Positions 8,418 to 31,745 are shown, counted from the first letter of the stretch. The stretch is 37,586 bases of DNA from Anaerolineales bacterium (GCA_046541755.1 JBKHCQ010000002.1:1-37586), one strand, 5' to 3'. The notes: generated by a model not told the origin, from the letters alone. Numbers and translations are program-made.

Positions 8418-8431
8418 ACCCCCTCCTATTT

Positions 8432-9067: not shown

Positions 9068-9090
9068 AATAACATCCTCATCTGATCGCG

Positions 9091-10110: not shown

Positions 10111-10139
10111 AGAGGGAAACCTCCAATCCGCACAGTAAA

Positions 10140-14476: not shown

Positions 14477-14485
14477 ACGCGCCCC

Positions 14486-15703: not shown

Positions 15704-15730
15704 GCTTTCCCTTCCTTTGCAGCTTCTCGC

Positions 15731-15770
15731 ATCTTGCCTTATCTCGCCTCATCTTGCCTTATCTTGCCCC
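15731..15770. repeat. Four phased 10-bp direct repeats (ATCTYGCCYY) in an 81-bp intergenic gap
   Basis: atcttgcctt/atctcgcctc/atcttgcctt/atcttgcccc read directly from the sequence. Lies between stop 15785 and start 15703. Confidence 0.8.
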
Positions 15771-15784
15771 TCATCACGCGCGCG

Positions 15785-16831
15785 TTACTCCTCAAAATAT
15801 GCCGCCGTTTTAATCGGCGGCAGTTCAAGCACGCGAAAAGATTCCCAGGAAATCTCGCCTATCAGATCGTCTTCCGCTAACACGCCCGCCCACGACTGAT
15901 CGGGCTTGCCGTATAATCCCTCGCCATAGAGAACCAGGGAATTCGCCGCAAAATCGCCCACATAGGCGCCATATTCCTGTAAAGCGCGGGCGATGATTTT
16001 GGCGGCCTCCGATAGCTCCAGCGTCTCGACGTCAATCGTAGGATCAAGTTGGAGACGTCCGCCCATAGGAATGCCATGCTCGTCGCCGTAGGCATCATAG
16101 GCTGTGCTGGCCGGATAGACATAGACGCCGGGCCTCGGGGCGTCGTACGCTATCACCAGGGCATGATCGATGTATCCTCGCTGTATCTCTTCCCATCGGA
16201 TCAACCCGGCCAGCAGGGGAAAGCCGCTGGCTCGCGCGCTGCCGATGCCCTCCGGCTGCACACCGTCGCCCTCCAGATCGAAGAGATAGCCCCACTCCAC
16301 CACCCATCCCCCATCCCGCGGCCTGGCCCGAAACATATCCCACGAGAGATCGCGGTACAAATCCACTACGACCATATGAGCATCATCCGCCGGATCGGGC
16401 ATCGCGTCATCCGGGATGGGGATATCCTCCCCAAAGCCGGCGCCGCAGACTTCCCAGGCGTTATCGCAGGGGACATCATAGATGGGCGTATGAGCATCGG
16501 CGTAATACACCGGGATCGTCCAATCATCCAAGTTGATCCAAAATCCGCCGCCGCCGCTGGTTTCCAGCGTGGCGATCATCGCATCGGAATTGGGATCGAT
16601 GGCGGGATCGGGGCCGATGGGGACGTTCCAAGGGCTGTCGGGACTGAATAGTTGCCAAACCTTCACGCCGCCTCGAACGACGGGTAAATATGCTTGGGGC
16701 GTCAGTTCAACTTCAAAGGCCGCGGGGGCGACCGCGGCAAACTCGGATGCTGTATCGGAGAGCGATGTGATGCTAATAGCCAACAAACCTATGACAACGA
16801 CTAAAGTAAAAATCTTCTGGGCGTCCATCAT
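15785..16831 (-). CDS. Hypothetical secreted/membrane-anchored protein (no family recognised)
   Basis: 348 aa. N-terminal hydrophobic anchor IFTLVVVIGLLAISITSL. Acidic, Trp/Gly-rich body (…SARASGFPLLAGLIRWEEIQRGYIDHAL…). Coding-like composition and operon position. The start may be the second ATG (16828). Confidence 0.6.
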   Translation of the reverse strand: MMDAQKIFTLVVVIGLLAISITSLSDTASEFAAVAPAAFEVELTPQAYLPVVRGGVKVWQLFSPDSPWNVPIGPDPAIDPNSDAMIATLETSGGGGFWINLDDWTIPVYYADAHTPIYDVPCDNAWEVCGAGFGEDIPIPDDAMPDPADDAHMVVVDLYRDLSWDMFRARPRDGGWVVEWGYLFDLEGDGVQPEGIGSARASGFPLLAGLIRWEEIQRGYIDHALVIAYDAPRPGVYVYPASTAYDAYGDEHGIPMGGRLQLDPTIDVETLELSEAAKIIARALQEYGAYVGDFAANSLVLYGEGLYGKPDQSWAGVLAEDDLIGEISWESFRVLELPPIKTAAYFEE

Positions 16832-16837
16832 TCCTCT

Positions 16838-16915
16838 CTTAGGCAGTTCCAGGAATCAAAACCTCCCCAACCGGATGTTTTTCCTCGGAAAACGGCTTAC
16901 TTTTGGGAGATTTAT
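16838..16915 (-). repeat. Dispersed ~79-nt intergenic repeat, family 3 (copy a); hairpin followed by a U-rich tract
   Basis: Aligns with 30117-30195. Minus strand: ATAAATCTCCCAAAAG...GGTTGGGGAGGTTTTGATTCCTGGAACTGCCTAAG. Both copies start within 30 nt after a minus-strand stop codon. Confidence 0.7.
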
Positions 16916-16943
16916 TCTCTTGGAACGGCCTTATTATTTCTCC

Positions 16944-17966
16944 CTATTTTTGAACTACTGTCAGCAACTGACGCGCTTTCTCCCACCACTCCTGGCGTCG
17001 AATGGTCTGGAGTGCGCGCATCTCGGCCCGAAATCGCGGTAGATCATCCTGCATCTCCAACAGGGCCTCTCGAATGCCCGGGGCGGTGTTATCGATATGA
17101 AGCGTTCCTTGGTTAAAGTAGGTTTCGAGCACCGGCCCCTGGGATGTGATGAGGGGTTTGCCTAACCACAGTGCTTCGTTGGCGCCGCTGAGGAATTGAT
17201 AATCCTCGACGCACAAATCCATCATCACATCGGCGGCCTCTAAAAGGGAAAAGAAGTCCTCTTGCAAGTAGCCGGTGAAGTGGGCGTTTTCCGGCGCGCT
17301 GTCCACGATGGGCTGCCGCGCTCCCGAATAGTCACCGGTGATGTAAAAATGAATCTCCGGCAATTCGCGCGCCGCTTTCAGCACCTCCCGCACCGGCTCA
17401 TCGGGGCTGGCCGAGCTGACCATGACGACGTTCAGGCGGTTCGCGGGCAACGCCAGCGGCTCGGTCACGCGCGGCGCGAGCGGCGGATCCTCCAGGACCA
17501 AGCTGTGCGCGCCCCAATCCATGACCAAATCGCGCAGGTAGTCGTTGGTCACCAGGGTAGTGATCGCCCGGCGCGAGAGGAAGCGGTGCAAGGGCAACGT
17601 CCATTTCCACATAGGATGTAGCAAGGGCGGCGTGTGAGCATCGATGATGAATTTGGCAGGGAAAAACAGACTGTAGATGTACACGGGCAACGCCGCAAAG
17701 ATCGGGGGGTCTTGGATAAATACCAGTTGGTAGCGCGTGCGGATCAGAAAGATGAGCGTGGCGAAAAATTGATAGGGGTATTTGTAGAGCGCGTGGTATT
17801 TTCCCTTTTTGGCCGTGATGTAAATATGCTTCACATCCATCCCCAGGTGCTGCGCGATGATCTGACTTCGCCGCGAGCCATGGGGCGCGCCCCAGACTAG
17901 GAATAAAGCCTTAGCATCTATTTGAATCGACGGTTGAATCGACGGGTCGCTGTTATGCATGGTCAT
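16944..17966 (-). CDS. Glycosyltransferase (GT-B fold, GT4-like)
   Basis: 340 aa. C-terminal ...LSGANEALWLGKPLITSQGPVLETYF resembles the GT-B EX7E region. Overlaps the upstream stop by 14 nt, so translationally coupled. Confidence 0.6.
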   Translation of the reverse strand: MTMHNSDPSIQPSIQIDAKALFLVWGAPHGSRRSQIIAQHLGMDVKHIYITAKKGKYHALYKYPYQFFATLIFLIRTRYQLVFIQDPPIFAALPVYIYSLFFPAKFIIDAHTPPLLHPMWKWTLPLHRFLSRRAITTLVTNDYLRDLVMDWGAHSLVLEDPPLAPRVTEPLALPANRLNVVMVSSASPDEPVREVLKAARELPEIHFYITGDYSGARQPIVDSAPENAHFTGYLQEDFFSLLEAADVMMDLCVEDYQFLSGANEALWLGKPLITSQGPVLETYFNQGTLHIDNTAPGIREALLEMQDDLPRFRAEMRALQTIRRQEWWEKARQLLTVVQK

Positions 17967-18912
17967 CTTCCATCCAGATATTGCCCAAATATTGCGCGGT
18001 ATAGTCTCCCACGGTCATAAATACGACATCAGGAAACGAAGCCATATAAGCCAACAACTCTCGCGTATACTCGATCATCATCTGCCCGCTGGCGCGATAG
18101 AATAGGTTGCGCAATCGCAGCCCGTGCGCGCGGATGAACGAGGGCTTGAAATACTCCGGCTCGATGAAGTCTCGCCATTGTTTCCAGCCCCCCCCGCCCC
18201 CGCCGCTCACAAACTCGGCCGGATGCGCCAGGTAGACGATGGGTTTGCCCGTATGATGGGATTCTATGTACAGTAATCTAAACAGAATTTTTAACATGCC
18301 CACGCTAAAGATCCTGAGTAGCGTGGAGATAAAGGGCGCTCCGGTCGCCGAGACCGGCGCCTCCCAAATGGGCATGTCGCCGGCCCGAAAGACATTATCC
18401 GCGCGCGGACGATAGGGACGGCGCGGCGCGAAGACCCATCCCAGGTTGATGAGATTTGAGCTGACGAAATCTATCCTCTGAGAGCAGACCGAGCTATCGA
18501 CCCGGTAACCGTGTTCGACCAACACCTTCATCGTCGGTGCCCCGACCTTCACACGCGGGGCGCGAAACGCCTGGATCGGGACGCCGGTCACGGCTTGCAG
18601 TTGCTCGGTGGCCTGTCCGATGTACGCGCGCTGCATCGCCTCCGGCATTTGATCGTAGTTCTCCTCGGTGCCGTGGGTCAAGCCGTGACAACCCACCTCG
18701 TGGCCTTGATGTTGCATCCTCGCAATCTCATCGCGATAGGCTTCCGCCGCCGTCGCCGTGACGAAGAAAGTCGCGCGGATCTCATGTCGCCGGCACAGAT
18801 CCATTGCCGTTCTCAGCGCCTGCAACCGGTTGTCCAACGGAATCCATTCGTCGGGGTCCGCGTCCCACGTGATGAGTACCGGCACTGTATGAGAGCTAGC
18901 GGGATGGTTCAC
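17953..18912 (-). CDS. Polysaccharide deacetylase (NodB homology domain)
   Basis: 319 aa, GTG start 18912 in a GTGA overlap with the upstream stop. Motifs VLITWDADPDEW, ATFFVTATAAEAY, GHEVGCHGLTHG and FRAPRVKV. Confidence 0.8.
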   Translation of the reverse strand: MNHPASSHTVPVLITWDADPDEWIPLDNRLQALRTAMDLCRRHEIRATFFVTATAAEAYRDEIARMQHQGHEVGCHGLTHGTEENYDQMPEAMQRAYIGQATEQLQAVTGVPIQAFRAPRVKVGAPTMKVLVEHGYRVDSSVCSQRIDFVSSNLINLGWVFAPRRPYRPRADNVFRAGDMPIWEAPVSATGAPFISTLLRIFSVGMLKILFRLLYIESHHTGKPIVYLAHPAEFVSGGGGGGWKQWRDFIEPEYFKPSFIRAHGLRLRNLFYRASGQMMIEYTRELLAYMASFPDVVFMTVGDYTAQYLGNIWMEDDHA

Positions 18913-20138
18913 AAGTATCTCTCGAACAGGTCGCCCAATTTAGCCGCGCTCTTGTAGATGTTGAACTCTTCTACAATTCGCTTCCGCCCATTCTGGCCCA
19001 ACGTCCGGCGCAACGCTGCATCTTCTATCAACCGCTGGAGAGCATCCGCCAACGCCTCCGCGTCCTTTTCCGGCACGAGCAGGCCGCTCACGCCGTCCTC
19101 GATCAACTCCGGGATGCCCGACACATCGGTGGAGACGGCGGCGATTTCCATCGCCATCGCCTCCATCAGCGAGACCGGGATGCCGTCCACATCGTTGTTG
19201 CGCGCCGTGATGCACGGCAGCGCGAAGATGTCCGCGCGTTCCAGGTACGGGCGCAGATCCTCTTGAAAGACGGCGCCGGGCAATTCGAACGATGCTTGCA
19301 GGTCATATTTCTCAACCAGGTGATCCACAAGCGGCTTCTCAGGGCCGTCGCCGATCAAGGCGCAGTGGAAGGGCACGCCGCGCTCGGCCAAAATCCGGCA
19401 TGCTTCCACCAAGAAAGGCGCGCCTTTGCGCTCCGCCAACTGCGCGACGAAGAGAATCAGCGGGATATCGTTGTCGGGTCGCGCATCGGGCGGCGAAAAA
19501 TCGTCCGGCGCGAGGCCGCAGCGAATGATGTGCATCTTGGCCCCTTGCTCCTCCCCGCCCGGCACGAGATCCATCAGAAATTGACGGCTGAACTGGGAGA
19601 TGACGCTGATGAATCGCGCGCCGTGGACTTTTTCCGGCAACAGGACCCGGTCAATAAAGAAGCTGTTGTGCGCCGTGAAGCTGTAGGAAATATCGAGCAG
19701 GCGCGAAATCACCAGCGCGATGGTCGCGGCGTTGATGGCAAAGTGCGCGTGAATGTGCTCGACGTTCAGACGTTGCATCTCGCGGGCCATGCAGATTGCT
19801 TCGCAGAAGTGGAGGAAGGTGCGCCGGCGATGTGAGATGCTCTCCCCTGGCCGGGTCAACACGAACCACAACGTCTTGAGGTATCGAGCCGGTCGGGTGA
19901 AGAGAAAATGCAAGTGCGCGCCGATGAAATCGGCCCACCGGATGGGTAGAACATAGAAGGTGCTATCCACCAGATGGCGCGATTCCAGCGAGAGCTTGTC
20001 CTTGACGGGTTTCCAGATGGCAAACGTTTCGATGTTGAACCCTCTTTCCTGCAAGGCGAACACTTCCCGGTACACGAACGACTCGGTCAGCGCCGGGAAA
20101 ATATGAGAGACATAGGCGACGGTCTTTTGTGAGTTCAT
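18909..20138 (-). CDS. Glycosyltransferase family 4 (WcaL-like)
   Basis: Track ORF 18909-20144, trimmed to ATG 20138 (ATGA overlap with upstream stop 20135-20137; GAGGGGTGGGG upstream). N-terminus VAYVSHIFPALTESFVYREVFALQERGF. C-terminal ...PCITARNNDVDGIPVSLMEAMAMEIAAVSTDVSGIPELIEDGVSGLLV. Confidence 0.8.
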   Translation of the reverse strand: MNSQKTVAYVSHIFPALTESFVYREVFALQERGFNIETFAIWKPVKDKLSLESRHLVDSTFYVLPIRWADFIGAHLHFLFTRPARYLKTLWFVLTRPGESISHRRRTFLHFCEAICMAREMQRLNVEHIHAHFAINAATIALVISRLLDISYSFTAHNSFFIDRVLLPEKVHGARFISVISQFSRQFLMDLVPGGEEQGAKMHIIRCGLAPDDFSPPDARPDNDIPLILFVAQLAERKGAPFLVEACRILAERGVPFHCALIGDGPEKPLVDHLVEKYDLQASFELPGAVFQEDLRPYLERADIFALPCITARNNDVDGIPVSLMEAMAMEIAAVSTDVSGIPELIEDGVSGLLVPEKDAEALADALQRLIEDAALRRTLGQNGRKRIVEEFNIYKSAAKLGDLFERYL

Positions 20139-21421
20139 CCCCACCCCTCTTTTCGACCTCTATTGGGTTGTTTCGCCAATGGCGGCTTGATCAACCAGCC
20201 GGCATCTCCTCCGTCGGCGGACTGGATCGCTTCCTCGATCCAGAACAGGGGAAGTTTATAGCCACTCAACACCTTACAGCCGAGGCAATACACGGATGCG
20301 CCCTGATGACATCGCAACCGGTAGACCAGATACCGGCCGCTGCGATACGGCGTGCGCGTTTTGCCGCGCGCCAACGTCGGCACGGGTAGACGCGGCGTAT
20401 GTCGGGCGTCCTGTTTCGGCTGCTTCCCGCCGGGCGCATGCACCATCGAGAGATAGCCGACCTCCTTGGCAATGCGCACCGTCAAGTCGTTGTAGCCTCC
20501 ACCCGGCCAACAGACGAAGTTTACCTTTTTCTGCAAGCGAGCTTCGATGATCTCTTTAGACGCGCCCAGTTCATATCGCACGCGAGCTTGATAGGCTTCC
20601 TCGCTCTCCCAGCTTTCCTCAAGTTGATGTCGCGAGCGATAGTGTCGCACCCACTGGAAAAGGCGCGGCCGCCAGCCGCGCTCCTGGAACAGCGCCGGGC
20701 CGCCGCGCGCCTCGACCTGGCGGATTAAAAAATCTGCCAATTTGGGATCCGGGAAATATCGGCGGGCCAGCAATGATTTTCGATAGGTGTAGATAGGCGT
20801 CCCGAAGGGGACAAACGAGGATTGGTCTTCATTGAGCCACAGATATTTGCGCTCCGGTTTGGCATTCCATGCCAGCCAGGGGTAGCCATCCTGGGGATGG
20901 TGAAAATCCACGATATGATGATCGTTAAAGTACCAGGTGTGCGTGATGGTGTGGGATTGCACATCCATCACCCCGGCAGATTCCATCTCCGCTAACTCCG
21001 TCCAAGATAAAAAACCGGTGGTTTCCAAATCCCGCGCCGCGCCGCGTCCCGCTGCTGCATCATCCGAATTAAGACGTCGGGTATCTCTGGGATCGACAAA
21101 GTCTGGGTTGATGAAAATCGTCCCTTCGCAACCGTAACGTTTGAGGATCGGGTAGGCGTACACCCAGTTATCGAGGTATCCATCATCGAATGTGAGTACG
21201 ATCGGATTGGGGGGGAGGGGAGCATCATGCGCCAGATGATCGTACAGATGTTGGAGCGAGATTGTCGTAAAGTTGTGATTGACCAGCGCGCGCACGTGAT
21301 CCTCAAACACGCCCACCGGACACGAGAGATTGCCCCACAACCACTGCTGGTTATCTGAAACGCTGTGATACATCAGCACGGGGACGTGGATTTTGATGTC
21401 GATCGCGGGAGATTTTGCCAT
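20135..21421 (-). CDS. Polysaccharide deacetylase (NodB homology domain plus C-terminal extension)
   Basis: Track ORF 20135-21427 (TTG), trimmed to ATG 21421, 3 nt after the upstream stop. Motifs VPVLMYHSV, IVLTFDDGYLDNW and GTIFINPDFV. Confidence 0.8.
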   Translation of the reverse strand: MAKSPAIDIKIHVPVLMYHSVSDNQQWLWGNLSCPVGVFEDHVRALVNHNFTTISLQHLYDHLAHDAPLPPNPIVLTFDDGYLDNWVYAYPILKRYGCEGTIFINPDFVDPRDTRRLNSDDAAAGRGAARDLETTGFLSWTELAEMESAGVMDVQSHTITHTWYFNDHHIVDFHHPQDGYPWLAWNAKPERKYLWLNEDQSSFVPFGTPIYTYRKSLLARRYFPDPKLADFLIRQVEARGGPALFQERGWRPRLFQWVRHYRSRHQLEESWESEEAYQARVRYELGASKEIIEARLQKKVNFVCWPGGGYNDLTVRIAKEVGYLSMVHAPGGKQPKQDARHTPRLPVPTLARGKTRTPYRSGRYLVYRLRCHQGASVYCLGCKVLSGYKLPLFWIEEAIQSADGGDAGWLIKPPLAKQPNRGRKEGWG

Positions 21422-21423
21422 AA

Positions 21424-22644
21424 TCAAGCCTCGTCTAACGAATGATGGTACAGAGATAGATGTTCGTCCACCTGCACTTGCGCGCTAAACGCCGCCGTTG
21501 CCCGTCGCTTACCCGCCAACCCCATCGCTTGCGCCCGCTGAGGATCGGATAAAAGCTGTGATATCGCCGCCGTGAGTTGCGGAACATCGCCAGGCGGCGT
21601 CAGGCGTCCCATCTCCTCCGAGGTGATGACCTGCACAGTACCGGAGACCTCGGAGGCCACCACCGGCAATCCCGTGGCCAGTGCTTCCAAGAGCGCCATT
21701 GAAAGCCCCTCCCACAAAGAGGGGAGCACGAAGAGATCGCTGGCGGCCAGCAGCGCCGGCACGTCGCGGCGGCTGCCCAAAAAGTGGATGTGCGCATCCA
21801 CATGTAACGCCGCCGCCTGCGACTTCAAGGCCTCCCGCAAAGCGCCATCGCCGATGAAGAGTGCATGCGCGGATGGATGGCGCGCCACAATGGCCGGCAT
21901 CGCCTGGATCATGTACGGGTGTCCTTTGCCTTCTTTCAACGTGCCGACGAGCGCAATCAGACGCGCGGTCTCTTCCAAGCCCAGCTCGCTGCGGATCCCC
22001 GTTGGATCGCCGGGTCGTTCGTACTGCTCAATATCCACCCCGTTACAGATGACGATGACTTTACCGGGAACGGGACGGATGGTCTCCGTGATGGCGTCCC
22101 CCACCTGATCCGAAACCGCGATGAAGCCATCGACGAACCGGGAGGCCCATTTATATAGCAGGTGATGGACAAATCGTTTTGGCCCTAGCAGCCACGTGTG
22201 GCCGGCGAGGTCGGTTTTCGCCAACCTAAATTGGGCGCTGTGAAAGGTCCAGAAAACGGCGCGGACGGCGGTGGTGTACTTGAGAAGTAAGACGAGAAAA
22301 TCGAGCGTGCGCAACAAATGGGTCTGCACCACATCGATGTCATATTGCCGGACGATTTGGGTCAACGCTCGCCAGATACGCATCATATCGCCCAGGAACC
22401 AGGGGAAGGCCAACACGCTGTAGCGACGATCGGGCAGGATATGCACGTCAATGCCCAATTGTTCTATATCCCGCCGCAAGGGGCCATCTTTAAAAGAGCA
22501 GACGACGGGCCGGGCCGCCGGCGCATTCATCGCATTCATGTATTTCACCAGCGTCCGCACGACCTCCTGGGCGCCGCCGATGTTCAGATCTCCAATAATC
22601 TGCAAGACGTTAAGCGATCGTCCACGGCCCTGTGAGGCTGTCAT
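21424..22644 (-). CDS. Glycosyltransferase family 4
   Basis: 406 aa. ATG 22644 in an ATGA overlap with upstream stop 22641. Motifs LNVLQIIGDLNIGGAQEVV and ...FVLPSLWEGLSMALLEALATGLPVVASEVSG (EX7E). Confidence 0.85.
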   Translation of the reverse strand: MTASQGRGRSLNVLQIIGDLNIGGAQEVVRTLVKYMNAMNAPAARPVVCSFKDGPLRRDIEQLGIDVHILPDRRYSVLAFPWFLGDMMRIWRALTQIVRQYDIDVVQTHLLRTLDFLVLLLKYTTAVRAVFWTFHSAQFRLAKTDLAGHTWLLGPKRFVHHLLYKWASRFVDGFIAVSDQVGDAITETIRPVPGKVIVICNGVDIEQYERPGDPTGIRSELGLEETARLIALVGTLKEGKGHPYMIQAMPAIVARHPSAHALFIGDGALREALKSQAAALHVDAHIHFLGSRRDVPALLAASDLFVLPSLWEGLSMALLEALATGLPVVASEVSGTVQVITSEEMGRLTPPGDVPQLTAAISQLLSDPQRAQAMGLAGKRRATAAFSAQVQVDEHLSLYHHSLDEA

Positions 22645-24137
22645 CTCGAAAACCCCCCGGTCATCGTATCAGGAGCGAAATGCATGGCCCATCTGCGCGC
22701 CCAATGCGGCAGACCAAAATCTTCGGGCCGGAGGTACGCTTGCACCATATTGGCAACCAAGCCCAGTGAAAACCACCATGTACCGATGGCATGCCAGAAG
22801 AAGCGCGCATCCATAACCTGGGTGGCTATCAGATAGAAGATGATCGATAACCACAGCAGGACGAGCAAGCGCCAACTCCAAAATCCCTCACGCGGCAAGC
22901 GCGGCAACACCTTGATCGTCAACCGTAGCCACCAGAGCACGGCGAAGAATTGGAGGAAAAACCCCACCAGCCCCATCTCCGCCAAAATCGTGAGATAGGT
23001 GTTGTGCGAGGTCCCCTTATTGATGTCCCAATCTGTGGGCGCGGCACTCCCCACGCGGACCATAAATTTCCAATCGTAACGATCATAGTTGCCGAATCCC
23101 CATCCCCATAAAGGTTTGGCGTAGAACATTTCGCGTCCGGCGTTCGCCAGGACGATGCGACTATCCACTGTATCCTGGACCCCCAGTCGTTTGAGCGCAA
23201 AAGCGACCTCATCTGCCAATATCGTGCCAGATAGAATCCCCGCTGCCACGATGGTGGTGATCAATAGCAAGGACATTGTCTTGGGATACAGAATCAACAG
23301 TCCCAAGAGGACGGGCGCTGACGCGAGCCAACAGCCGCGCGTAAAGGTCAAAAAAATACAGAACAATCCCAAACAGAAGGTCAAAATTAAGAGCCACCGA
23401 ACGATGTCCGATTGGCGATGCATGGCTTCGTGAAAAATGAAGACCATACACACGATCAGCGTATAAGCATAGGGTGTGGGATTAGTGAATGTGCCGGACA
23501 TCCGCGTGCCCATTCTGGCGATATCCCATATCGGAGGCAATGTCTGAGGCGCATAGCGCCCCCAAAAACCGAGCACAATCTCCCCGACGCAGACGAGGAA
23601 CATCGGCAGCACTAACCGCCTCATATCCTCCGCGCCGGGACGCAGGACCCGCACCAACCAATACGCGGCGAACGACACAAACATTCGATCATACAGCTCA
23701 TACAGGTAGATGAGCGGGGAGCTTCGCGTCAGCAGGACAGAAACTCCGGCTACGACGAGATACATCACCATCGAAAGCTCCGCCCATCCCACCTTCACCG
23801 GCTTGTACGCTTTGACCTCCAATGCCCGCGCTAGAATGGCCAATCCCATCGCCAAGGGAATCAAAGCGCGATGGACGAGCCAAAAGACGCGCGATCCGAC
23901 CGTCTCGAAGGGCAAGAACGGCATCAGCACAAACCAGACGATAACGCTCAGCCATGGATAATGATTGAGCAACATCCCCGCCGGCGCGGCGAAGAGGACA
24001 CCCAAGGCGAGCAGCCAAGAGCCTCTGGCGAGCAGCAGGGCGACCAACAAGCCTAATATTCCCCCAAGTAATAGAGGGATGCCAGAGGCTAAAAAACCCC
24101 TATTCCAAAGTTTCCGCATTTCTCTCTCAAAATTCAT
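22641..24137 (-). CDS. O-antigen ligase family membrane protein (probable Wzy-type polymerase)
   Basis: 498 aa, polytopic. Large loop with ...NKGTSHNTYLTILAEMGLVGFFLQFF, typical of the Wzy_C/O-antigen-ligase domain. Confidence 0.75.
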   Translation of the reverse strand: MNFEREMRKLWNRGFLASGIPLLLGGILGLLVALLLARGSWLLALGVLFAAPAGMLLNHYPWLSVIVWFVLMPFLPFETVGSRVFWLVHRALIPLAMGLAILARALEVKAYKPVKVGWAELSMVMYLVVAGVSVLLTRSSPLIYLYELYDRMFVSFAAYWLVRVLRPGAEDMRRLVLPMFLVCVGEIVLGFWGRYAPQTLPPIWDIARMGTRMSGTFTNPTPYAYTLIVCMVFIFHEAMHRQSDIVRWLLILTFCLGLFCIFLTFTRGCWLASAPVLLGLLILYPKTMSLLLITTIVAAGILSGTILADEVAFALKRLGVQDTVDSRIVLANAGREMFYAKPLWGWGFGNYDRYDWKFMVRVGSAAPTDWDINKGTSHNTYLTILAEMGLVGFFLQFFAVLWWLRLTIKVLPRLPREGFWSWRLLVLLWLSIIFYLIATQVMDARFFWHAIGTWWFSLGLVANMVQAYLRPEDFGLPHWARRWAMHFAPDTMTGGFSR

Positions 24138-24154
24138 CTTTTCAACAACAGTTC

Positions 24155-25759
24155 CTATGAGGATATTCGCTCAAAGAGCTGGGATAACGCCGGGATGCGG
24201 CTGACGCGCTCTCGCAAACGCTCCACAACCATCTGATCCTCCTTAGAGAGACCGAGCATCAGCAAAGCGCTGACATAGGTGAACAACAAAATGCCCGCGC
24301 CGATAATCGTTCCCGCCGTTGAATTCCCCGGCAGGAGCCACTGGCGCAGCGCGTACGTGGCCAAAGACGCTAACAAGGCTGCGATCACCGGCTTCACGAA
24401 GCTCCGATTGTACGGTAAGATCCGAAACAAGAAGAACACCTCTAACATCAGCATGAGATTAACGGTAGAAAGACTGATTGTCGTCGCCAGCGCCGCGCCC
24501 ACCACACCCCAGCGCGGGATCAGCCAGAGACTGAGTAGCGCCAGCAGGAGAGATCGCACAGCCGCGTTGAGGATGTTCAGCTTTGTATTGCCCGTCATCG
24601 TGACCATCACGCCGCAAATCCCCACCGCCGCGCCGAACAAATCATTGCCCGCCAAAATGATCAACCCCAGGGAACCGGATACATAGCTGTCGCCAAAAAC
24701 CGAGAGGATAGGACGCGAGAAAAACAGGATCAGCAAAAAGAACGGCAAACTAAAGGTCAGCGTCCATTTGGTCATCGTCTGGAAGAAACGCCTTAATTTT
24801 TGCATATCCCCGCCCGCGTGCAGTTCTGATACCACAGGCATGGACATCATACTGATCGAAGTGTAAAAGGCCGTGCTGACCATGCTCACGCGCGAAGCGA
24901 CGGTGAAGACGCCGGCCGAGGCGACGGTGCTGAGCGCTCCTAACAGCAGGATGCGAAGGTTAGGCCCCAACATCAACAGAAGCTCCGAAAGATAGACTGG
25001 CAACGAGAAATGCAACATCCGGCGCGCATGCCGGCGGCTCACGCGGAGCGGGCGGTTGAGCGGAAATAGCTTGTTCACAAAATAGAGCAGCAGCCCACAG
25101 GATGCTATCGCCCCCATGGAGTAGACCGTCATCGCCTTGACAGCGGTCAATCCCGTGAACGCCAACCCGACAATCAAGAACAGCTTCAAGTAGGTTTGGA
25201 GGATGTTTTGCGCGATGACGCTATATTCCACGCGCTTGAACCCCAGGAGCACAAAACTCGCCACCGTCGCTAAAGTTCCGGCGGGCACGGCAATCGCGAC
25301 GATGCGCAAGAGGGGCACCAAGCTCGGCTCGCGAAATATGATCTCCGCCAGCGGCGCAGCCAATCCAAAACAGAGCAACCCGCCCAGCAAGCTAATCAGC
25401 AGCGGCAGGCCCCCGCCAATCTGGATCGTTTGCCATAACGCTTCGCGATCCCGTTCTGCCGCAAACATCGAGATGAAATGCGTCGTCCCGGTGTTGAGGC
25501 CCAACAAGGCGACGCCCACGACGATGTAAAAGGTAGAATCCGCCACGCTGTATAACCCGTATTGTTCATCTCCCAATAGGCGCGCCAACAAAAACCCGAG
25601 GATGAACCGCCCCGCATACTCCAGCATCGTGCCGATAAAAGAGAGGCTCCCGCCCTTGGCCACCGTCAAGATATTCTGATCCGACGCTGATGATCCAACG
25701 TCAGAATTTTCGTCCAGGAATTTCTCCGGTTGGGATACGGAGGCGTCAGTTATCGTCAT
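24155..25759 (-). CDS. MOP-superfamily polysaccharide flippase (Wzx-like)
   Basis: Track ORF 24155-25852, trimmed to ATG 25759 (ATGA overlap with upstream stop 25756-25758). 534 aa, polytopic, with N-terminal ...VAKGGSLSFIGTMLEYAGRFILGFLLARLLG, typical of the Polysacc_synt family. Confidence 0.8.
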   Translation of the reverse strand: MTITDASVSQPEKFLDENSDVGSSASDQNILTVAKGGSLSFIGTMLEYAGRFILGFLLARLLGDEQYGLYSVADSTFYIVVGVALLGLNTGTTHFISMFAAERDREALWQTIQIGGGLPLLISLLGGLLCFGLAAPLAEIIFREPSLVPLLRIVAIAVPAGTLATVASFVLLGFKRVEYSVIAQNILQTYLKLFLIVGLAFTGLTAVKAMTVYSMGAIASCGLLLYFVNKLFPLNRPLRVSRRHARRMLHFSLPVYLSELLLMLGPNLRILLLGALSTVASAGVFTVASRVSMVSTAFYTSISMMSMPVVSELHAGGDMQKLRRFFQTMTKWTLTFSLPFFLLILFFSRPILSVFGDSYVSGSLGLIILAGNDLFGAAVGICGVMVTMTGNTKLNILNAAVRSLLLALLSLWLIPRWGVVGAALATTISLSTVNLMLMLEVFFLFRILPYNRSFVKPVIAALLASLATYALRQWLLPGNSTAGTIIGAGILLFTYVSALLMLGLSKEDQMVVERLRERVSRIPALSQLFERISS

Positions 25760-28527
25760 GGGGCTTGTGCTCGTCTTCGAGATTGCCGCCAGGCAATACC
25801 CAAAATAGCGCAGAGGGCCAGCCCCGCTGCAATCACCAGGGGAATTAGCCACCCTGGACGACTCACAGCCTCATCCTCCAAAGAAATCTGAGGCGCAATC
25901 TCGGTCGCGGCGGATGGCTCAGGGGCGACCGTGGGGGAAGCCGTGGGATCGCGCGCCGTCGCAGTGGACGTCACGACCTCCGACTCAGAGAGACTCGGCC
26001 CGGTGGTTTGCACATAGTCATCGCCGAACCTCCGCGTATCGACCGTACTAACCGCCCCATCCTTAATCAACGCCAGATTTCCGTTCAAAGCCCAGGATTG
26101 ATGCATCAACACATCCGCGGCCTGCTGCACCCCCTCATCTGTCGTGCCGGTCACGGCCAACAGAGCGCGCGACGCATGCCAAGGCGAAACCATAAGCTGG
26201 ATATATCCCAAACTCGCATTCGAGGGGAAGCGCAACGTCACCCAATCCAACTTCTGCGCGATCACATCCGAGTTCGGCAAGAAAGGCTGCGGCAGTTGAT
26301 TATGTACCTCTTGCAACACGCGGTTCCGCGAAGGTCGCCCTACCGCAATGATATGATGCGCGCTCAACATCGCTGCGGCATCCGGCATGCCCAACGTCAC
26401 CGCCGGCGCGAAACTAAGCCCCCCAGAGGCCTCGCCCAGCATCGCGGCCAACCGCAACGCAGAATCCCACACCTCGCTCTGAGGGCTTTCGGGCAGCGCA
26501 AAGAGCACGTCGGTCAAATCCGGGCGCAGATCAAAAGGATGCGAGAAGAACTTCAGATCCAACACCTGCTCATCGCGCACCGAGTGCTCCAAGTGCAACG
26601 CGGATGTGCTAATGACGCGCAACCAGACATTCGCGTATGCGCACTCGTCCACCGGGAACAGCTCAGACTCTACAGAAATAAGATTAAGCTCGCCATTGCG
26701 GACGAGGGAAAGCGGCAGCACCACATCCACCCGCCCCGCCAACGCGGTTTGAGCGCTGAGCGCGATGGTGGCGATGGTCTCATGGTTAAGGGCCACACTC
26801 AGCGATGATCGATCATAATCTAGGTTCTGGGCATGTCGAAAGGACAGGCTCAGCGTGATCTCGTCGGTGAGATGCCAGCCCACGGGGATATCGAAGTAAT
26901 AGCTGACCCTATCGCTGAATCCATCCAGCATCCCATCTTCATATCCCAAATCGGCTAAGGTCATCTCGGCCCGGGGGGAAATTTGAGGGCGTTCCAATCC
27001 GACGGACGGGCCGCGCACCACTGCATGCGCCCCCGTCAGGCCGGGGAAGCGATTCCGGGAACTTATGGCCCGACTCGCCAGGGCAACCGCCTCATCATGC
27101 AATCCAGTGAGAATCAAAATCGCCTTCGATGGTTCCCAAGGAGATACGAGCATCTGCACCACGCCGTCATACTCCGCAACCCCGCGCCCTTCTTGCACGA
27201 AAAAGTAATCGGATGGGGGGCGCGAGCGCTTTATATTGCCCGCCGTGCCCGCTTCGATTTCTGAAGGCGCGCTCGTGCTCACGGTCGTCGTCAAGGTGCT
27301 CACATTCACCGGATGATCGCGCGCATCGAGCAAGGTCGCCGTGTTCTCCACCATAGCCGCGGTCAGCGCATCGCTCGCGCGCAACACCAACTCCCGATTG
27401 ATCGTCGCCCCCGGAGATAAGGAGGGCAACTCCCAAGCGACCTCTCCCGTCGCTAACTCAACGCAGGCCGGCAAGCAGCGTGTGAATTGTGTGGGGGTCA
27501 GGATCGCATTCACCAGCGAGAAAGATGCGATATGGTCATCCGTCGTATTCGTCACTGTCAAGGTATACGTCAACAGCGCGCCCGGCGCGACGGAGATTGG
27601 CCCCTGAGTGGTCAGGTGCAGTTGCCGCTCCTGCAAGGCGAGCGGCAGAGCGTCTAGCTCATTAAGCGCCCCTATCACTTTGTTGCGCTCTGGCGTGCCG
27701 ACCACAATCCAATGCTCGTACGGCAACGCTGCGCCCTGCGCCGCGATGCGTTCCAGCAGCTCCCCATCGGTCGTGCCGCTAATCAGCACTCCATACGTCA
27801 GCGCGCCCAATCTGGCAGATGTCGCCGCCGCGCCCGCCAACTCCGCCGCCGAGGGATGATCAGGCAACACGAACTGGACGCGATCGGGTGCCACAGCGTT
27901 CTGATAAAAGGGCCGTGGATAAAGCGCCAAGTCCACCTCGATAGGGCGTTGTTCGTAGGCGAGTGCGAAGAAGGAGGTGGCATGGATGGTCGAATATGCA
28001 TTGTGTGGGATGCCGCAGATATAGCTCGCGTCCAAGATCACTTTGATGGTATGCGAGCGTGATGGCAAGGTGTTGAACACCGAGGGCGGCAAATCGATGC
28101 GCAGACGAGCGTGTTCCGCCGCTGCATCATCAATGGGGGCGATGTGCAGAACTTCCCCATCCAACGTGATGATGAGATTCCCAAAAGAAATTGGCTCGAC
28201 GGGTCTCGCTAGGGGATCTGCCGAATGATAGGTATAGCTAAAATCCAGCTCCAAAAAGCTCCCCGCCTGAAGATGCCACCCTTCAGGCAGTCGTAGCGTA
28301 TAATCCGTCGTACTATACGGGCTGCGCAACGTCCTCTCGCCGTATTGCAGATCAGATAGTGCAATCTGCACGCCGGGAAAGGCATCGTCAGGCGGATCAT
28401 GGCTCTCTTGCGCCTCCGTAGAAGAATAAAAAACGCCCAGAACTAGCCAGGTCAGCAAAACCCAAAATATCACAACGCTTCCGATGCGGACGCTGCCCCT
28501 GGATCTCCGCTTTCTCTGCTCACTCAT
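25756..28527 (-). CDS. BcsB-like (cellulose-synthase subunit B family) two-module extracytoplasmic protein with C-terminal TM anchor and an inserted DUF11-like domain
   Basis: Track ORF trimmed from GTG 28566 to ATG 28527 (GGAG upstream). N-terminal signal/anchor VVIFWVLLTWLVLGVF. Module 1: IALSDLQYGERTLRSPYSTTDYTLRLPEGWHLQAGSFLELDFSYTYHS...NLIITLDGEVL...ICGIPHNAYSTIHATSFFALAYE...DLALYPRPFY...HWIVVGTP. Module 2: MTLADLGYEDGMLDGFSDRVSYYFDIPVGWHL...LSLSFRHA...SSLSVALNHETIATI...ECAYANVWLRVISTSALHLEH...LKFFSHPFDL...HHIIAVGRP. Two ...VSPW(E/H)(P/A)S(K/R)A(I/L)L..TG...E(A/G)V..A(S/A) flavodoxin-like ends. LTYTLTVTNTTDD insert between the modules. C-terminal TM GWLIPLVIAAGLALCAILGIAW-RQSRRR. This pattern matches BcsB as I recall it from E. 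coli. Confidence 0.75.
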   Translation of the reverse strand: MSEQRKRRSRGSVRIGSVVIFWVLLTWLVLGVFYSSTEAQESHDPPDDAFPGVQIALSDLQYGERTLRSPYSTTDYTLRLPEGWHLQAGSFLELDFSYTYHSADPLARPVEPISFGNLIITLDGEVLHIAPIDDAAAEHARLRIDLPPSVFNTLPSRSHTIKVILDASYICGIPHNAYSTIHATSFFALAYEQRPIEVDLALYPRPFYQNAVAPDRVQFVLPDHPSAAELAGAAATSARLGALTYGVLISGTTDGELLERIAAQGAALPYEHWIVVGTPERNKVIGALNELDALPLALQERQLHLTTQGPISVAPGALLTYTLTVTNTTDDHIASFSLVNAILTPTQFTRCLPACVELATGEVAWELPSLSPGATINRELVLRASDALTAAMVENTATLLDARDHPVNVSTLTTTVSTSAPSEIEAGTAGNIKRSRPPSDYFFVQEGRGVAEYDGVVQMLVSPWEPSKAILILTGLHDEAVALASRAISSRNRFPGLTGAHAVVRGPSVGLERPQISPRAEMTLADLGYEDGMLDGFSDRVSYYFDIPVGWHLTDEITLSLSFRHAQNLDYDRSSLSVALNHETIATIALSAQTALAGRVDVVLPLSLVRNGELNLISVESELFPVDECAYANVWLRVISTSALHLEHSVRDEQVLDLKFFSHPFDLRPDLTDVLFALPESPQSEVWDSALRLAAMLGEASGGLSFAPAVTLGMPDAAAMLSAHHIIAVGRPSRNRVLQEVHNQLPQPFLPNSDVIAQKLDWVTLRFPSNASLGYIQLMVSPWHASRALLAVTGTTDEGVQQAADVLMHQSWALNGNLALIKDGAVSTVDTRRFGDDYVQTTGPSLSESEVVTSTATARDPTASPTVAPEPSAATEIAPQISLEDEAVSRPGWLIPLVIAAGLALCAILGIAWRQSRRRAQAP

Positions 28528-28542
28528 CTTAATCACTCCATT

Positions 28543-28575
28543 ACTTAGACGGCACTTAGACGGCACTTAGACGGC
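28543..28575. repeat. Perfect 11-bp x3 tandem repeat (acttagacggc) spanning the stop codon of the Wzz-GGDEF gene
   Basis: Read directly from the sequence. Minus strand is (GCCGTCTAAGT)x3, and the first unit supplies Ala-Val-TAA of the upstream gene. Confidence 0.95.
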
Positions 28576-29694
28576 CAGGATCTCCGCCGTTGAACTGCTG
28601 ATCGCGCCAGAGACCGACTCTGAACGCTGCAAGGATTTCTCGGCTTGGGCCAGAAACTCCTCGGGACTCAACTGATTACGTTGATAGGTCGCAACCGCGG
28701 CTCTGCAATTCAAGTCGAGGGCTCCGCCCCCCCTTTCCAATTTGAAGGACATCGAGGTTATCCCCATCTGCAACTCCTCGATAAAGCTCTCAGCCTCTTC
28801 CTTCCGCAGGTCGGGGAGGAGTATGGCGAACACGGTACCCTTCGTCCGCGCTATCACATCCTCCGTCCGTATATGGCGCATCAAGAACATGGCCGCCCGG
28901 CGGATCACCGCGCTTTGCTCCTGCGGCGAAGAGAGCGCTTCGATTTCCCGGGCGCGATCGATATCGATGCAGGCCAAACTCAAGGCATACGCATTACGCT
29001 CAGCGCGGGCCATCTCCTCCTCTAATCGCTGTTTTAAGAAAGTTCTGTTATATACGCCACTTTCCTCATCCAGGATATTAAACTCGGTTGGGGAGCGCAA
29101 GGGAATTTGGAGGTATTCCAAGAAGAACGCCAATCCGCAGCCCAGCGCCAATCCGAACACCGCGCCCAAGGCTACCTGCATTTTTTCATTGCGCGCCACT
29201 TGATACCCCTCTTCGGGCGCGGAGTCGAGAAGATTCAGATTATAAATTCCCTGAAGCTCTTGAAGATCTTTAACATAGGCCACGGTCTCATCGCCAATCG
29301 TGTTAGCCAAAAGGGAGACGCTTTCGCGATTCCGGCCCTGAACCGTGATTTTCAACAGGTTTGTCCCCGACAAAGGGTAAGCATCAATCGAGAAATACGC
29401 CATTTGGGACATGGATAATCCCAACTTATCCGCCACCCGCCCGCGAACTAAGCGGCTCAGGGCTATTTCCGCGTAAGTGTTACCGATCTCGGTCTGCCGA
29501 CTTAAAATATCGACCCCGTACACCACGCTGCCGGCGAGAGAGGGATTAGGCACGATGACAAAGGTGACGGTGGCTTCGTAAATCGGGGGCTGCATGAATG
29601 TAAATACGATCGTGGCAGTTAAGGTGATCACGAAAACAGATAAGACGATCCACCACTTTCGCAACAGAATCAGCATATAGATCTTCAGTTCCAT
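28567..29694 (-). CDS. Wzz/PCP-type polysaccharide co-polymerase fused to a degenerate GGDEF domain with intact RxxD I-site (predicted c-di-GMP receptor)
   Basis: Track ORF 28567-29790, trimmed to ATG 29694 (the upstream part lies in a dispersed repeat). 375 aa. Wzz N-terminus ELKIYMLILLRKWWIVLSVFVITLTATIVFTFMQPPIYEATVTFVIV. TM2 MQVALGAVFGLALGCGLAFFLEYL. Then DEESGVYNRTFL...LACIDIDRAREIEA...HIRTEDVIARTKGTVFAILLPD. Confidence 0.8.
   Translation of the reverse strand: MELKIYMLILLRKWWIVLSVFVITLTATIVFTFMQPPIYEATVTFVIVPNPSLAGSVVYGVDILSRQTEIGNTYAEIALSRLVRGRVADKLGLSMSQMAYFSIDAYPLSGTNLLKITVQGRNRESVSLLANTIGDETVAYVKDLQELQGIYNLNLLDSAPEEGYQVARNEKMQVALGAVFGLALGCGLAFFLEYLQIPLRSPTEFNILDEESGVYNRTFLKQRLEEEMARAERNAYALSLACIDIDRAREIEALSSPQEQSAVIRRAAMFLMRHIRTEDVIARTKGTVFAILLPDLRKEEAESFIEELQMGITSMSFKLERGGGALDLNCRAAVATYQRNQLSPEEFLAQAEKSLQRSESVSGAISSSTAEILAV
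28600..29082 (-). other. Degenerate GGDEF domain: active-site position KGTVF (28828-28842), I-site RTED (28858-28869)
   Basis: Gapless by-eye alignment to the PleD GGDEF domain. There are 29 residues between IDID and RxxD in both, and RxxD is followed by 5 residues and then the GG(D/E)EF position. The FKxxND stretch is replaced by AREIEA. Confidence 0.75.
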
Positions 29695-29989
29695 CTCTTC
29701 ACCTGGCCTCCCAAACATTTCTAGGGCTTTGGGATTTCGCCGGACAATTCCCCCAGCGATCCTGACAACCACTATCCCCGTACACAACACAAACTTCGGA
29801 AGCTGTCAGGTCATATCCACCAGTAGCGATGACGATGTCATCGCCTATCGAGGGGGGGATATACCTCACAAACCTCCGAAGTTTGTCGAGGATCTATGAC
29901 CTCCGCACCTATCTTAACGATCAAGAACAACTGCGCGACTCAAAAATCAAAACGATCCGTTACGCTCGTCCTTTCCGTAAGTAGGGCAA
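29695..29989 (-). promoter_or_regulatory. Long structured 5' leader of the Wzz-GGDEF / BcsB-like operon segment
   Basis: Perfect 12-bp inverted repeat 29789-29800 / 29875-29886. Inner 8-bp hairpin 29826-29833 / 29837-29844. A further 8-bp pair, 29808-29815 / 29895-29902, crosses the first (alternative fold or pseudoknot). No ORF in the region. Confidence 0.45.
29725..29790. repeat. Dispersed intergenic repeat, family 2 (copy b, partial)
   Basis: GGCTTTGGGATTTCGCCGGACAATTCCCCCAGCGATCCTGACAACC aligns with 5582-5625 and 31526-31560. Confidence 0.6.
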
Positions 29990-30017
29990 AGTGTACAATG
30001 TTTGCTAATTAACGCAA
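29990..30017 (-). promoter_or_regulatory. Candidate sigma70-type promoter TTGCGT-N16-TACACT
   Basis: Minus strand: TTGCGT (30012-30017), 16-nt spacer, TACACT (29990-29995). Lies immediately downstream of the 14-bp repeat array. Confidence 0.4.
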
Positions 30018-30032
30018 ACGTTATCTCCTTTC

Positions 30033-30094
30033 CATCAACACTTTCACATCAACACTTTCACATCAACACTTTCACATCAACACTTTCACATCAA
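30033..30094. repeat. Tandem 14-bp direct repeat, 4 full copies plus 6 nt (catcaacactttca)
   Basis: Read directly: units at 30033, 30047, 30061 and 30075, partial at 30089-30094. Perfect copies. Confidence 0.95.
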
Positions 30095-30116
30095 ATCCTT
30101 CAGTGAAATGTTGGGA

Positions 30117-30195
30117 CTAAAGCAGTTCCAGAAATTAAAACCTCCCAAACCTGATGCTTTTTTCTTGGGAAACTGTTCGTTTTTGAGAGATTTAT
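30117..30195 (-). repeat. Dispersed ~79-nt intergenic repeat, family 3 (copy b)
   Basis: Aligns with 16838-16915. Begins 9 nt after the sugar-transferase stop. Minus strand: ATAAATCTCTCAAAAACG...GGTTTGGGAGGTTTTAATTTCTGGAACTGCTTTAG. Confidence 0.7.
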
Positions 30196-30204
30196 CAAAC
30201 TACA

Positions 30205-30885
30205 CTACAGGGCGCCGGCGCCAGAGAAGACCGAAAGAGCCGTCAACCACAAGATTTTCAAATCGAGCCACAAGCAGCAATCTTCCACATATTCTACGTC
30301 GTGATGAGCAATGTCATCGAAGGAAATCGTGCTGCGCCCCATAACCTGCGCTAATCCTGTGATGCCGGGCAGGACGTTCAGGCGTTGATAGTGCCACGGC
30401 TCGTAAGCTTCTACTTCCCAAGGAACGTTGGGCCGTGGCCCGACGATGCTCATCTCGCCCCGCAGCACATTGATGATCTGAGGCAGCTCATCCAAGCTGG
30501 TCTTGCGCAAGATCGCCCCTACCTTGGTGATCTGAGAAGCTTTGATCGGCTTGAAAATCGTGTGGCCCTCTTCAATCTTCCCTTCAACTTCCCCCTTCAC
30601 AAACGCCTGCATATACGCCCGGTGCTCGCGGTCATCCAAATTGTGCTGCATAGTGCGAAATTTAAACATTCGGAATGGATTCCCATCCTTCCCGATGCGC
30701 TCCTGAATGAAAAACGCCGGGCCGGGAGAATCCAATCGAATGGCCACCGCACACACAGCCATCACAGGTAGCAAAACAGGCAATAGCAAAAGACAAATCA
30801 CCCAATCGAAAAGCCGTTTAGCTACCTCGTATGGCCTTGGATAAGACCATACCTTTGTTTGTTGTTGAATAAAAACCGAGTCCAT
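30205..30885 (-). CDS. Bacterial sugar transferase (initiating polyprenyl-phosphate glycosyl-1-phosphate transferase, small monotopic PGT)
   Basis: Track ORF (TTG 30903) trimmed to ATG 30885, with AAGGAGG 6 nt upstream. Motifs KRLFDWVICLLLLPVLLPVMAVCAVAIRLDSPGPAFFIQERIGKDGNPFRMFKFRTM, DELPQIINVLRGEMSIVGPRP and LPGITGLAQV are hallmark Bac_transf motifs. 226 aa. Confidence 0.9.
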   Translation of the reverse strand: MDSVFIQQQTKVWSYPRPYEVAKRLFDWVICLLLLPVLLPVMAVCAVAIRLDSPGPAFFIQERIGKDGNPFRMFKFRTMQHNLDDREHRAYMQAFVKGEVEGKIEEGHTIFKPIKASQITKVGAILRKTSLDELPQIINVLRGEMSIVGPRPNVPWEVEAYEPWHYQRLNVLPGITGLAQVMGRSTISFDDIAHHDVEYVEDCCLWLDLKILWLTALSVFSGAGAL

Positions 30886-31666: not shown

Positions 31667-31700
31667 AAAAAAACGCTCGATCCGGTTAAGGATCGAGCGT
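31667..31700 (-). terminator. Rho-independent terminator after the ICMT-family gene
   Basis: Minus strand: ACGCTCGATCC-ttaacc-GGATCGAGCGT (11-bp perfect stem) followed by TTTTTTT. Lies 46 nt after stop 31746. Confidence 0.85.
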
Positions 31701-31745
31701 TTGCGGTTATGGATAGACAAGAGACGTCAAGCCATCAAATTTATC

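Follow-up and report, generated by a model that had tools for sequence, protein, structure and literature searches.

The gene cluster described here, from an uncultured Anaerolineales bacterium (Chloroflexota), raises the question of how the polysaccharide co-polymerase (PCP) of a Wzx/Wzy-dependent pathway might be switched when a degenerate GGDEF domain takes the place of its kinase, and of what a BcsB-like protein does beside it. The window analysed is the whole stretch of 37,586 nt from a metagenome-assembled genome (MAG) of this organism (GCA_046541755.1 JBKHCQ010000002.1:1-37586). It contains a single long minus-strand cluster that starts after the terminator at 31671-31702 and ends near position 5692, according to the open reading frame (ORF) listing and Pfam scans. 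The first five genes encode an initiating phosphoglycosyl transferase (PGT), a fusion of a Wzz module to a degenerate GGDEF domain (hereafter Wzz-GGDEF), a BcsB-like protein, a Wzx flippase and a Wzy-family membrane protein, and these are followed by interleaved genes for glycosyltransferases (GTs) of the GT4 family and deacetylases. On balance, and with modest confidence, we read this locus as a Wzx/Wzy-dependent polysaccharide cluster in which the cytoplasmic domain of the PCP is a dead GGDEF domain with I-sites, through which cyclic di-GMP (c-di-GMP) may gate the pathway, and in which the BcsB-like protein may guide the polymer. We take as established the genes present, the state of their domains, the topology models, the conservation, the swap of domains and the local absence of a synthase and a kinase.

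A preliminary description of this DNA had assigned all of the named genes to the minus strand and had called the GGDEF domain degenerate, and the Pfam scans and the motifs given below agree with both statements. It had also reported neither a local GT2 synthase nor a tyrosine kinase of the BY-kinase type. When all six frames of the window were searched with the GT2 and BY-kinase domains of related loci, zero ORFs matched at E <= 0.01, and the Pfam scans of the window proteins contained no BY-kinase-type (AAA_31/CbiA) matches. The combination had not been recognised as a described system, and the open-access full-text literature likewise yielded no paper on a Wzz-GGDEF fusion or on a BcsB homologue in a Wzy pathway, an absence that is not proof. 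We do not regard the cluster as categorically new: it belongs to the established Wzx/Wzy type of pathway and varies it by a new class of PCP and by the recruitment of a BcsB-type subunit.

The co-polymerase carries a degenerate GGDEF domain

The AlphaFold2 model of Wzz-GGDEF (pLDDT 85) places the first transmembrane (TM) helix at residues 14-34, an alpha/beta domain of approximately 120 residues outside the membrane (39-157) and TM2 at 170-196, after which a short linker leads into a cytoplasmic GGDEF fold. Foldseek aligned the GGDEF part of the model with the c-di-GMP-bound diguanylate cyclases PleD, DgcB and DgcR at approximately 2 A over approximately 155 residues. A profile search of PDB sequences divided the protein in the same way, with residues ~200-365 matching diguanylate cyclases and the N-terminal and TM2-proximal parts matching Wzc (7nhr, E 4e-6); the CpsC-family model TIGR01006 was also matched by the Wzz module. 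The PCP is thereby predicted to be a CpsC/Wzc-like transmembrane module whose GGDEF domain is probably catalytically dead and keeps a primary RxxD and a secondary RxxR site.

The GGDEF signature is replaced by KGTVF, and the primary site (RTED, R276-T-E-D279) lies five residues upstream of it. The secondary site, R230xxR233, is found 46 residues upstream of RxxD. When the family profile was aligned to DgcR, its RxED fell on the RKSD I-site and its degenerate motif on GGEEF. Across 25 aligned homologues with identities down to 29%, R223, E227, R230, R233, E278 and D279 are invariant at I-site positions and R276 is nearly invariant, and every one of the 25 has a degenerate GGDEF signature. In a census, RxxD was identified in 97 of 99 distinct sequences and GG(D/E)EF in none; four divergent members that the census pattern had missed also contain RxED, which brings the counts to 101/103 and 0/103, respectively. 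Wzz-GGDEF bears the hallmarks of a predicted I-site c-di-GMP receptor, because RxxD and RxxR are kept while the GGDEF motif is lost, as in PssE and YdaK. PssE, with the same arrangement of RxxD and dead motif, binds c-di-GMP with a Kd of 0.79 uM (PMC4125290). In YdaK the spacing from RxxR to RxxD equals that in Wzz-GGDEF, and mutation of RxxD abolishes exopolysaccharide (EPS) production (PMC5422440).

The degenerate domain could instead be a merely structural module for oligomerisation or for protein docking (for example of a glycosyltransferase or of Wzy), or it could bind another nucleotide, in which case the PCP would not be controlled by c-di-GMP. The loss of the catalytic motif in every member fits such a role, as do the LysM or other domains found after the same Wzz module elsewhere, which indicate that this position tolerates varied domains. 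A further point in its favour is an arginine at the position equivalent to R390 of PleD, which we take to be the tertiary I-site arginine and which is not conserved in the window protein. We nonetheless consider this explanation unlikely, as it is opposed by the RxxD and RxxR sites, which stay invariant or nearly so to approximately 30% identity despite the lost GGDEF motif, and by the pattern of conservation, which is that of the proven receptors PssE and YdaK (PMC4125290, PMC5422440).

The BcsB-like protein

The gene that follows encodes a true, very divergent BcsB homologue. Its N-terminus is signal-like, its two BcsB halves are accompanied by a DUF11/CLIPPER Ig-like insert, and an RRR motif follows the TM anchor at its C-terminus. 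A profile built from 20 of its homologues matched E. coli BcsB in the PDB in two stretches (E 1.8e-14) and also matched R. sphaeroides BcsB. The AlphaFold2 model (pLDDT 73) contains two beta-sandwich/flavodoxin-like halves, the Ig-like insert and a C-terminal TM helix formed by residues 876-903 of the 905 modelled. All of the top 22 PDB matches returned by Foldseek for this model were BcsB, the best being the BcsB crown (E 2.9e-32, approximately 850 aligned columns). Identity to BcsB is 11-14%, and the best score against an NCBIfam BcsB model was 69 bits, below the cut-off of 750. No BcsA is encoded beside the gene within the window. With the exception of the generic GGDEF model, no curated NCBIfam family scored above its cut-off for either Wzz-GGDEF or the BcsB-like protein.

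Conservation of the gene order

Gene neighbourhoods were gathered by direct look-ups, a scan of GTDB representative genomes and a metagenome scan, and were annotated with the window proteins, giving 51 non-redundant Wzz-GGDEF loci in total. The window proteins alone served as queries for the synteny table, and Pfam annotation extended to part of the related loci. A PGT gene is located upstream in 29 of the 35 loci with at least 1.3 kb of upstream sequence. The BcsB-like gene is the next gene in 27 of the 36 loci that extend for 700 nt or more downstream, and wherever at least 6 kb is available downstream, Wzx and/or Wzy is present in all but one locus (16/17, with L021 included through its Pfam call). 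Short or overlapping junctions between the BcsB-like gene and wzx are found in other loci as well. Where neighbours were annotated, in part of the loci, the surrounding 10 kb contained no recognisable synthase-type GT2; one locus, L004, encodes a single small GT2 of 331 residues after Wzy.

Because the gene order recurs in 27 non-redundant loci, the arrangement is not due to chance. The preliminary description had raised the question whether pairs of Wzz-GGDEF and BcsB-like genes in relatives accompany Wzy-type or GT2-type polymerases. The neighbourhoods tabulated point to Wzx/Wzy, and in 9/36 loci Wzz-GGDEF is followed by Wzx or Wzy with no BcsB-like gene between them. Wzz-GGDEF is more broadly associated with Wzx/Wzy than with the BcsB-like gene, which is a frequent, non-universal insertion between the PCP gene and wzx. 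Named records belong to Anaerolineales, Anaerolineae, Chloroflexia and Chloroflexi MAGs and one Acidimicrobiia MAG, and the two most similar come from an Anaerolineales MAG (uncultured, 76% identity) and from a Chloroflexi MAG (74%).

Two variants of the gene set were observed. In L021 (4776-12514 of GCA_034436395.1), the order is Wzz-GGDEF, Wzy, two tandem BcsB-like paralogues (768 and 837 aa), GT4, CE4 and GT4. Some relatives have an extra gene for a protein of approximately 285 aa upstream of the PGT gene (L001 3948-4802, L004 8431-9288, L008 6923-7783). Its product has approximately four TM helices and a very degenerate GGDEF-like domain (Pfam E 4e-5 to 8e-3) that reads ENYD...NDHFL and so is without RxxD. 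This gene was not found in the window, either intact or as a pseudogene.

Origin of the two components

An exhaustive profile search with Wzz-GGDEF identified 562 representatives at E <= 1e-30, and among the 150 listed most matches span both domains. The matches to the Wzz half only (E 1e-66 to 1e-84, among those listed) have other domains after TM2, which are a BY-kinase-type P-loop domain (AAA_31/CbiA) in five and LysM in two. The degenerate GGDEF domain occupies the place of the kinase in the nearest Wzz relatives and represents a domain swap. Some Wzz-GGDEF proteins (L035 143-2404 and L036 1301-3378) are extended by one more TM helix and by a Cys-rich tail outside the cell (...CNCRxECxGRDCTxVCDxCEKEKCD). 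In L035 it exhibits 52% identity over 228 residues with that of a BY-kinase-like protein (L020 12590-14647, on a 5.2-Mb contig of GCA_041300525.1) that adjoins a BcsB-like gene. Homology between the N-terminus of the latter protein and the Wzz module is not claimed, as the profile comparison was non-significant (probability 0.6%).

The window-type BcsB-like proteins form a clade of about 100 clusters with 36-73% identity that lie inside Wzx/Wzy clusters, whereas both outgroup loci examined (L022 and L023) have the BcsB-like gene beside GT2 synthases. In L022 (1-11807, Chloroflexi MAG GCA_023489135.1), a 1242-aa 5xMshEN-GT2 synthase is followed first by PMT-like membrane proteins and then by a BcsB-like protein and a 4-TM degenerate GGDEF protein (RTMD, DETGF), the last two being a YdaK/PssE-like pair. 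This single EPS operon contains two different types of c-di-GMP-binding module, MshEN and the degenerate GGDEF domain. In L023, a GT2 gene adjoins the BcsB-like gene. The preliminary description had likened the degenerate-GGDEF and BcsB-like pair to those of synthase-dependent systems, a view supported by the Foldseek matches to BcsB and by the GT2 context of the two outgroup loci. The Wzz-fused GGDEF domain and the TM-GGDEF protein of L022 are 23% identical (E 6e-11), a homology like that of any GGDEF pair, and direct descent linking the two cannot be claimed. Because the outgroup BcsB-like genes adjoin GT2 genes, in one case together with a TM-GGDEF gene, a synthase-type accessory pair seems to have been combined with a Wzy pathway; the two outgroup loci are consistent with such a module having moved into that pathway.

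The same outgroup context would also fit a mosaic cluster. In that case the degenerate GGDEF domain and the BcsB-like protein would work for a GT2 synthase whose gene lies outside the 37 kb of the window, and the Wzx/Wzy cluster would make a different polymer. We consider this very unlikely given that the GGDEF domain is covalently fused to the Wzz module, that the BcsB-like gene lies between the PCP gene and wzx in 27 non-redundant loci and overlaps wzx by ATGA in the window, and that, where neighbours were annotated, the 10 kb around each locus contained no recognisable synthase-type GT2, the small L004 protein being the only GT2.

Gene junctions and non-coding elements

Junctions were determined by inspection of start codons and of the N-termini of homologues (MELK... 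for Wzz-GGDEF). The junction between Wzz-GGDEF and the BcsB-like gene is 39 nt with a start at ATG 28527, or 93 nt with the start at GTG 28473 that is implied by a 905-aa database entry. The BcsB-like stop and the wzx start form an ATGA overlap, 17 nt separate wzx from wzy, and wzy and the first GT4 gene again overlap by ATGA. The PGT gene begins at ATG 30885, preceded by GAAAGGAGG, and the distance from its stop at 30205 to the Wzz-GGDEF start (ATG 29694) is 510 nt. The preliminary description had given all junctions as overlaps or gaps of at most 40 nt, which is correct for wzx, wzy and GT4 and, with the ATG start, for Wzz-GGDEF and the BcsB-like gene, and is wrong for PGT and Wzz-GGDEF. Its single tightly coupled block that includes the PGT gene was thus not upheld.

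The 510-nt gap contains a conserved non-coding element (29778-30040) that is 87-88% identical at the DNA level to the two closest relatives (L010 and L011), compared with 72-83% for the flanking genes. Its predicted RNA fold has a z-score of -5.0 relative to shuffled sequence. One compensatory pair of 83 was observed, the three sequences being near-identical and too few for covariation to be informative. Searches with nhmmer located the element in the window, L010 and L011 only, and an exact 22-mer scan of metagenome contigs gave zero matches. Rfam returned zero hits over the window at gathering thresholds and nothing credible for 29600-31750 at E <= 5, so that neither a c-di-GMP riboswitch nor another known RNA was recognised in the leaders. 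The element is a candidate cis-regulatory leader or RNA. A 14-nt tandem repeat lies directly upstream of it, and L010 has another short repeat, GGATTGGAT..., at the same place.

A leader of 785 nt (30886-31670) separates the terminator from the PGT start. Within it, a 78-nt stretch on the minus strand (31060-31137) is 88% identical to L010 2176-2253 and is located just downstream of the leader's only sigma-70-like match (31175-31147). This stretch may be the cluster promoter or 5' untranslated region. Promoter and terminator scans inside the block gave site counts that were not above those of shuffled sequence, and the terminator at 31671-31702 alone stands out.

Cluster layout and predicted polymer

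The features of the cluster are listed in Table 1. Pfam recognised a PGT, Wzx and a two-TM PCP of the Wzz fold, and the Wzy_C protein is the presumed occupant of the polymerase slot in the Wzx/Wzy pathway set. The PGT also matched NCBIfam model TIGR03025 at 5e-80, under the cut-off of that model.

Table 1. Predicted genes and non-coding features of the polysaccharide cluster in the window
Feature	Position	Strand	Evidence or remarks
Intrinsic-terminator-like hairpin, 13 bp + T run	31671..31702	-	Ends the upstream DUF1295 gene; upstream cluster boundary
PGT, small initiating phosphoglycosyl transferase, 226 aa, EPS_sugtrans-like	30205..30885	-	Pfam Bac_transf 2.4e-61
14-nt tandem repeat, 4.9 copies, minus strand GATGTGAAAGTGTT	30028..30094	.	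PGT-Wzz gap; TRF score 127, 98% matches
Conserved non-coding element, ~260 nt, upstream of Wzz-GGDEF	29778..30040	-	Contains a rod-like hairpin of ~100 nt
Wzz-GGDEF (degenerate GGDEF), 375 aa	28567..29694	-	Pfam Wzz 5.1e-11, GGDEF 2.7e-19
BcsB-like, 923 aa	25756..28527	-	PF03170 7.7e-42 in two stretches; weak DUF11
Wzx-type flippase, MOP superfamily	24155..25759	-	Polysacc_synt_3 4.9e-20, MatE 1.1e-14
Wzy / O-antigen-ligase-family polytopic membrane protein, presumed polymerase	22641..24137	-	Wzy_C 4.2e-17
Repeat-unit assembly and modification genes, block	13172..22644	-	
GT4	21424-22644	-	
CE4	20135-21427	-	
GT4	18909-20144	-	
CE4	17953-18912	-	
Weak GT-B	16944-17966	-	
Secreted protein, no assigned family	15785-16831	-	
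GT4	14486-15703	-	
CE4	13172-14476	-	
Cluster tail, block	5692..12824	-	
Secreted parallel beta-helix protein	10140-12824	-	
FemAB-like acyl/aminoacyl transferase	9091-10110	-	
GNAT	8432-9310	-	
Two PaaK-like adenylate-forming ligases	7050-8417, 5692-7314	-	

Because three CE4 proteins, FemAB/GNAT proteins and PaaK-like ligases are encoded together with three or four GT-B transferases, the gene content suggests a polymer of partly de-N-acetylated and re-acylated amino sugars.

The Wzy_C family (PF04932) spans ligases and O-oligosaccharyltransferases as well as polymerases. The Wzy_C protein could accordingly be a ligase or O-oligosaccharyltransferase, with the cluster decorating a cell-surface acceptor (wall, sheath, a protein or possibly the DUF11-bearing BcsB-like protein itself) instead of producing free EPS, and with the BcsB-like protein serving as a surface lectin or anchor. 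The Ig-like DUF11/CLIPPER insert of the BcsB-like protein is typical of surface proteins, and neither an LCP ligase nor an OPX protein was found in the Pfam scans of the window. The conserved neighbour of the Wzy_C protein is a PCP, however, and PCPs act on polymerisation; Wzx, the PGT and multiple glycosyltransferases likewise fit the synthesis of a polymer from repeat units. We therefore regard the decoration of an acceptor as distinctly improbable.

Comparison with known systems

The closest counterparts of the window PCP are the PCP-2 proteins with a tyrosine autokinase (E. coli Wzc; Gram-positive CpsC/CpsD and CapA/CapB), which likewise have a two-TM Wzz module, a cluster setting of PGT, Wzx and Wzy, and a cytoplasmic domain of nucleotide-binding type after TM2, predicted as such in the window protein. 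They differ from the window protein, in which a dead GGDEF domain with I-sites replaces the kinase, Walker motif and tyrosine cluster are lacking and the extracellular domain is short; no separate BY-kinase is present in the window.

Listeria PssE (with PssD as the BcsB-like protein and PssC as the GT2), B. subtilis YdaK (ydaJKLMN) and PelD share with the window a degenerate GGDEF domain with RxxD five residues upstream. In the PssE and YdaK systems, as in the window, a membrane-anchored receptor is encoded beside a BcsB-like gene in an EPS operon (PMC4125290, PMC5422440). The anchor is a 4-TM module in those systems and a Wzz/PCP module in the window, where c-di-GMP binding is predicted only, and their polymerase is a processive GT2 synthase rather than Wzy with Wzx and a PGT. 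The BcsB-like protein shares fold and topology (a body outside the cytoplasm, anchored by a C-terminal TM helix) with BcsB of the E. coli crown and of R. sphaeroides BcsA-BcsB, from which it differs in its low identity, its Ig-like DUF11 insert and the lack of a nearby BcsA.

The Caulobacter holdfast pathway is Wzx/Wzy-dependent, is controlled by c-di-GMP at the post-translational level and includes the CE4 deacetylase HfsH and the FemX-like GNAT HfsK, comparable to the three CE4 proteins and the FemAB-like protein of the window. We know of no GGDEF domain in the holdfast PCP and of no BcsB-like protein in that pathway. Besides HfsK, the holdfast glycosyltransferase HfsJ is a further c-di-GMP target. 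The effector on which c-di-GMP acts directly there is the soluble acyltransferase HfsK and not the PCP (PMC5362036). The GT2-synthase cluster of L022, from the same phylum, has a BcsB-like gene (27% identity) followed by an I-site-only GGDEF gene; it is synthase-dependent, carries its GGDEF domain on a 4-TM anchor instead of Wzz, and is without Wzx, Wzy and PGT.

Proposed mechanism and implications

Several observations weigh against a c-di-GMP-gated Wzx/Wzy cluster with BcsB-like guidance. RxxD is necessary but not sufficient for I-site binding, and the window protein has not conserved the arginine equivalent to PleD R390. The Wzy_C domain does not tell polymerases from ligases. The nine loci in which Wzx or Wzy follows directly show that the BcsB-like protein is not essential to the function of the PCP-GGDEF fusion, and in L020 the BcsB-like gene has the BY-kinase-like protein as its neighbour and not Wzz-GGDEF. 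The search for GT2 synthases covered the 37-kb window, and the rest of the genome could hold a distal one. With the PGT gene 510 nt away from the remainder, a single tight operon and the co-transcription of its genes are conjectural, and all members come from MAGs or metagenomes.

For the favoured reading we infer ligand binding, gating, the role of the BcsB-like protein and the polymer chemistry as follows. Intercalated c-di-GMP dimers would bind the RxxD and RxxR sites of the GGDEF domain of the PCP, and the bound ligand would cross-link or rearrange the cytoplasmic domains and alter the oligomeric state of the PCP ring. The altered state would license Wzy polymerisation or set chain length. 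Canonical PCP-2 proteins do this through cycles of tyrosine phosphorylation. The BcsB-like protein, with its large extracytoplasmic body and C-terminal TM anchor, would dock on the membrane complex of PCP and Wzy and, outside the membrane, would bind or guide the polymer as it grows, a role that BcsB plays for cellulose. The preliminary description had proposed c-di-GMP gating of polymerisation or chain length and an escort role for the BcsB-like protein, a functional view that is plausible. Wzz-GGDEF may accordingly represent a new PCP class in which an I-site-only GGDEF switch responding to c-di-GMP replaces tyrosine autophosphorylation and a BcsB homologue works without a processive synthase, a proposal that we offer tentatively, at somewhat less than even chances.

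The control of Wzy polymerases by PCPs is an open problem, and to our knowledge the BY-kinase cycle is the only cytoplasmic PCP switch that has been studied well. A naturally occurring family with a predicted c-di-GMP I-site domain in place of the kinase would supply an orthogonal form of this machine that a ligand can control. Its existence suggests that Wzy-dependent polymers can be regulated post-translationally by c-di-GMP through the co-polymerase, and the BcsB-type proteins of this family are not restricted to GT2 synthases. If borne out, the proposed PCP class would for the first time have a second messenger act directly on the PCP of a Wzx/Wzy pathway, and it would provide the first case of a BcsB-type module that works outside synthase-dependent systems.

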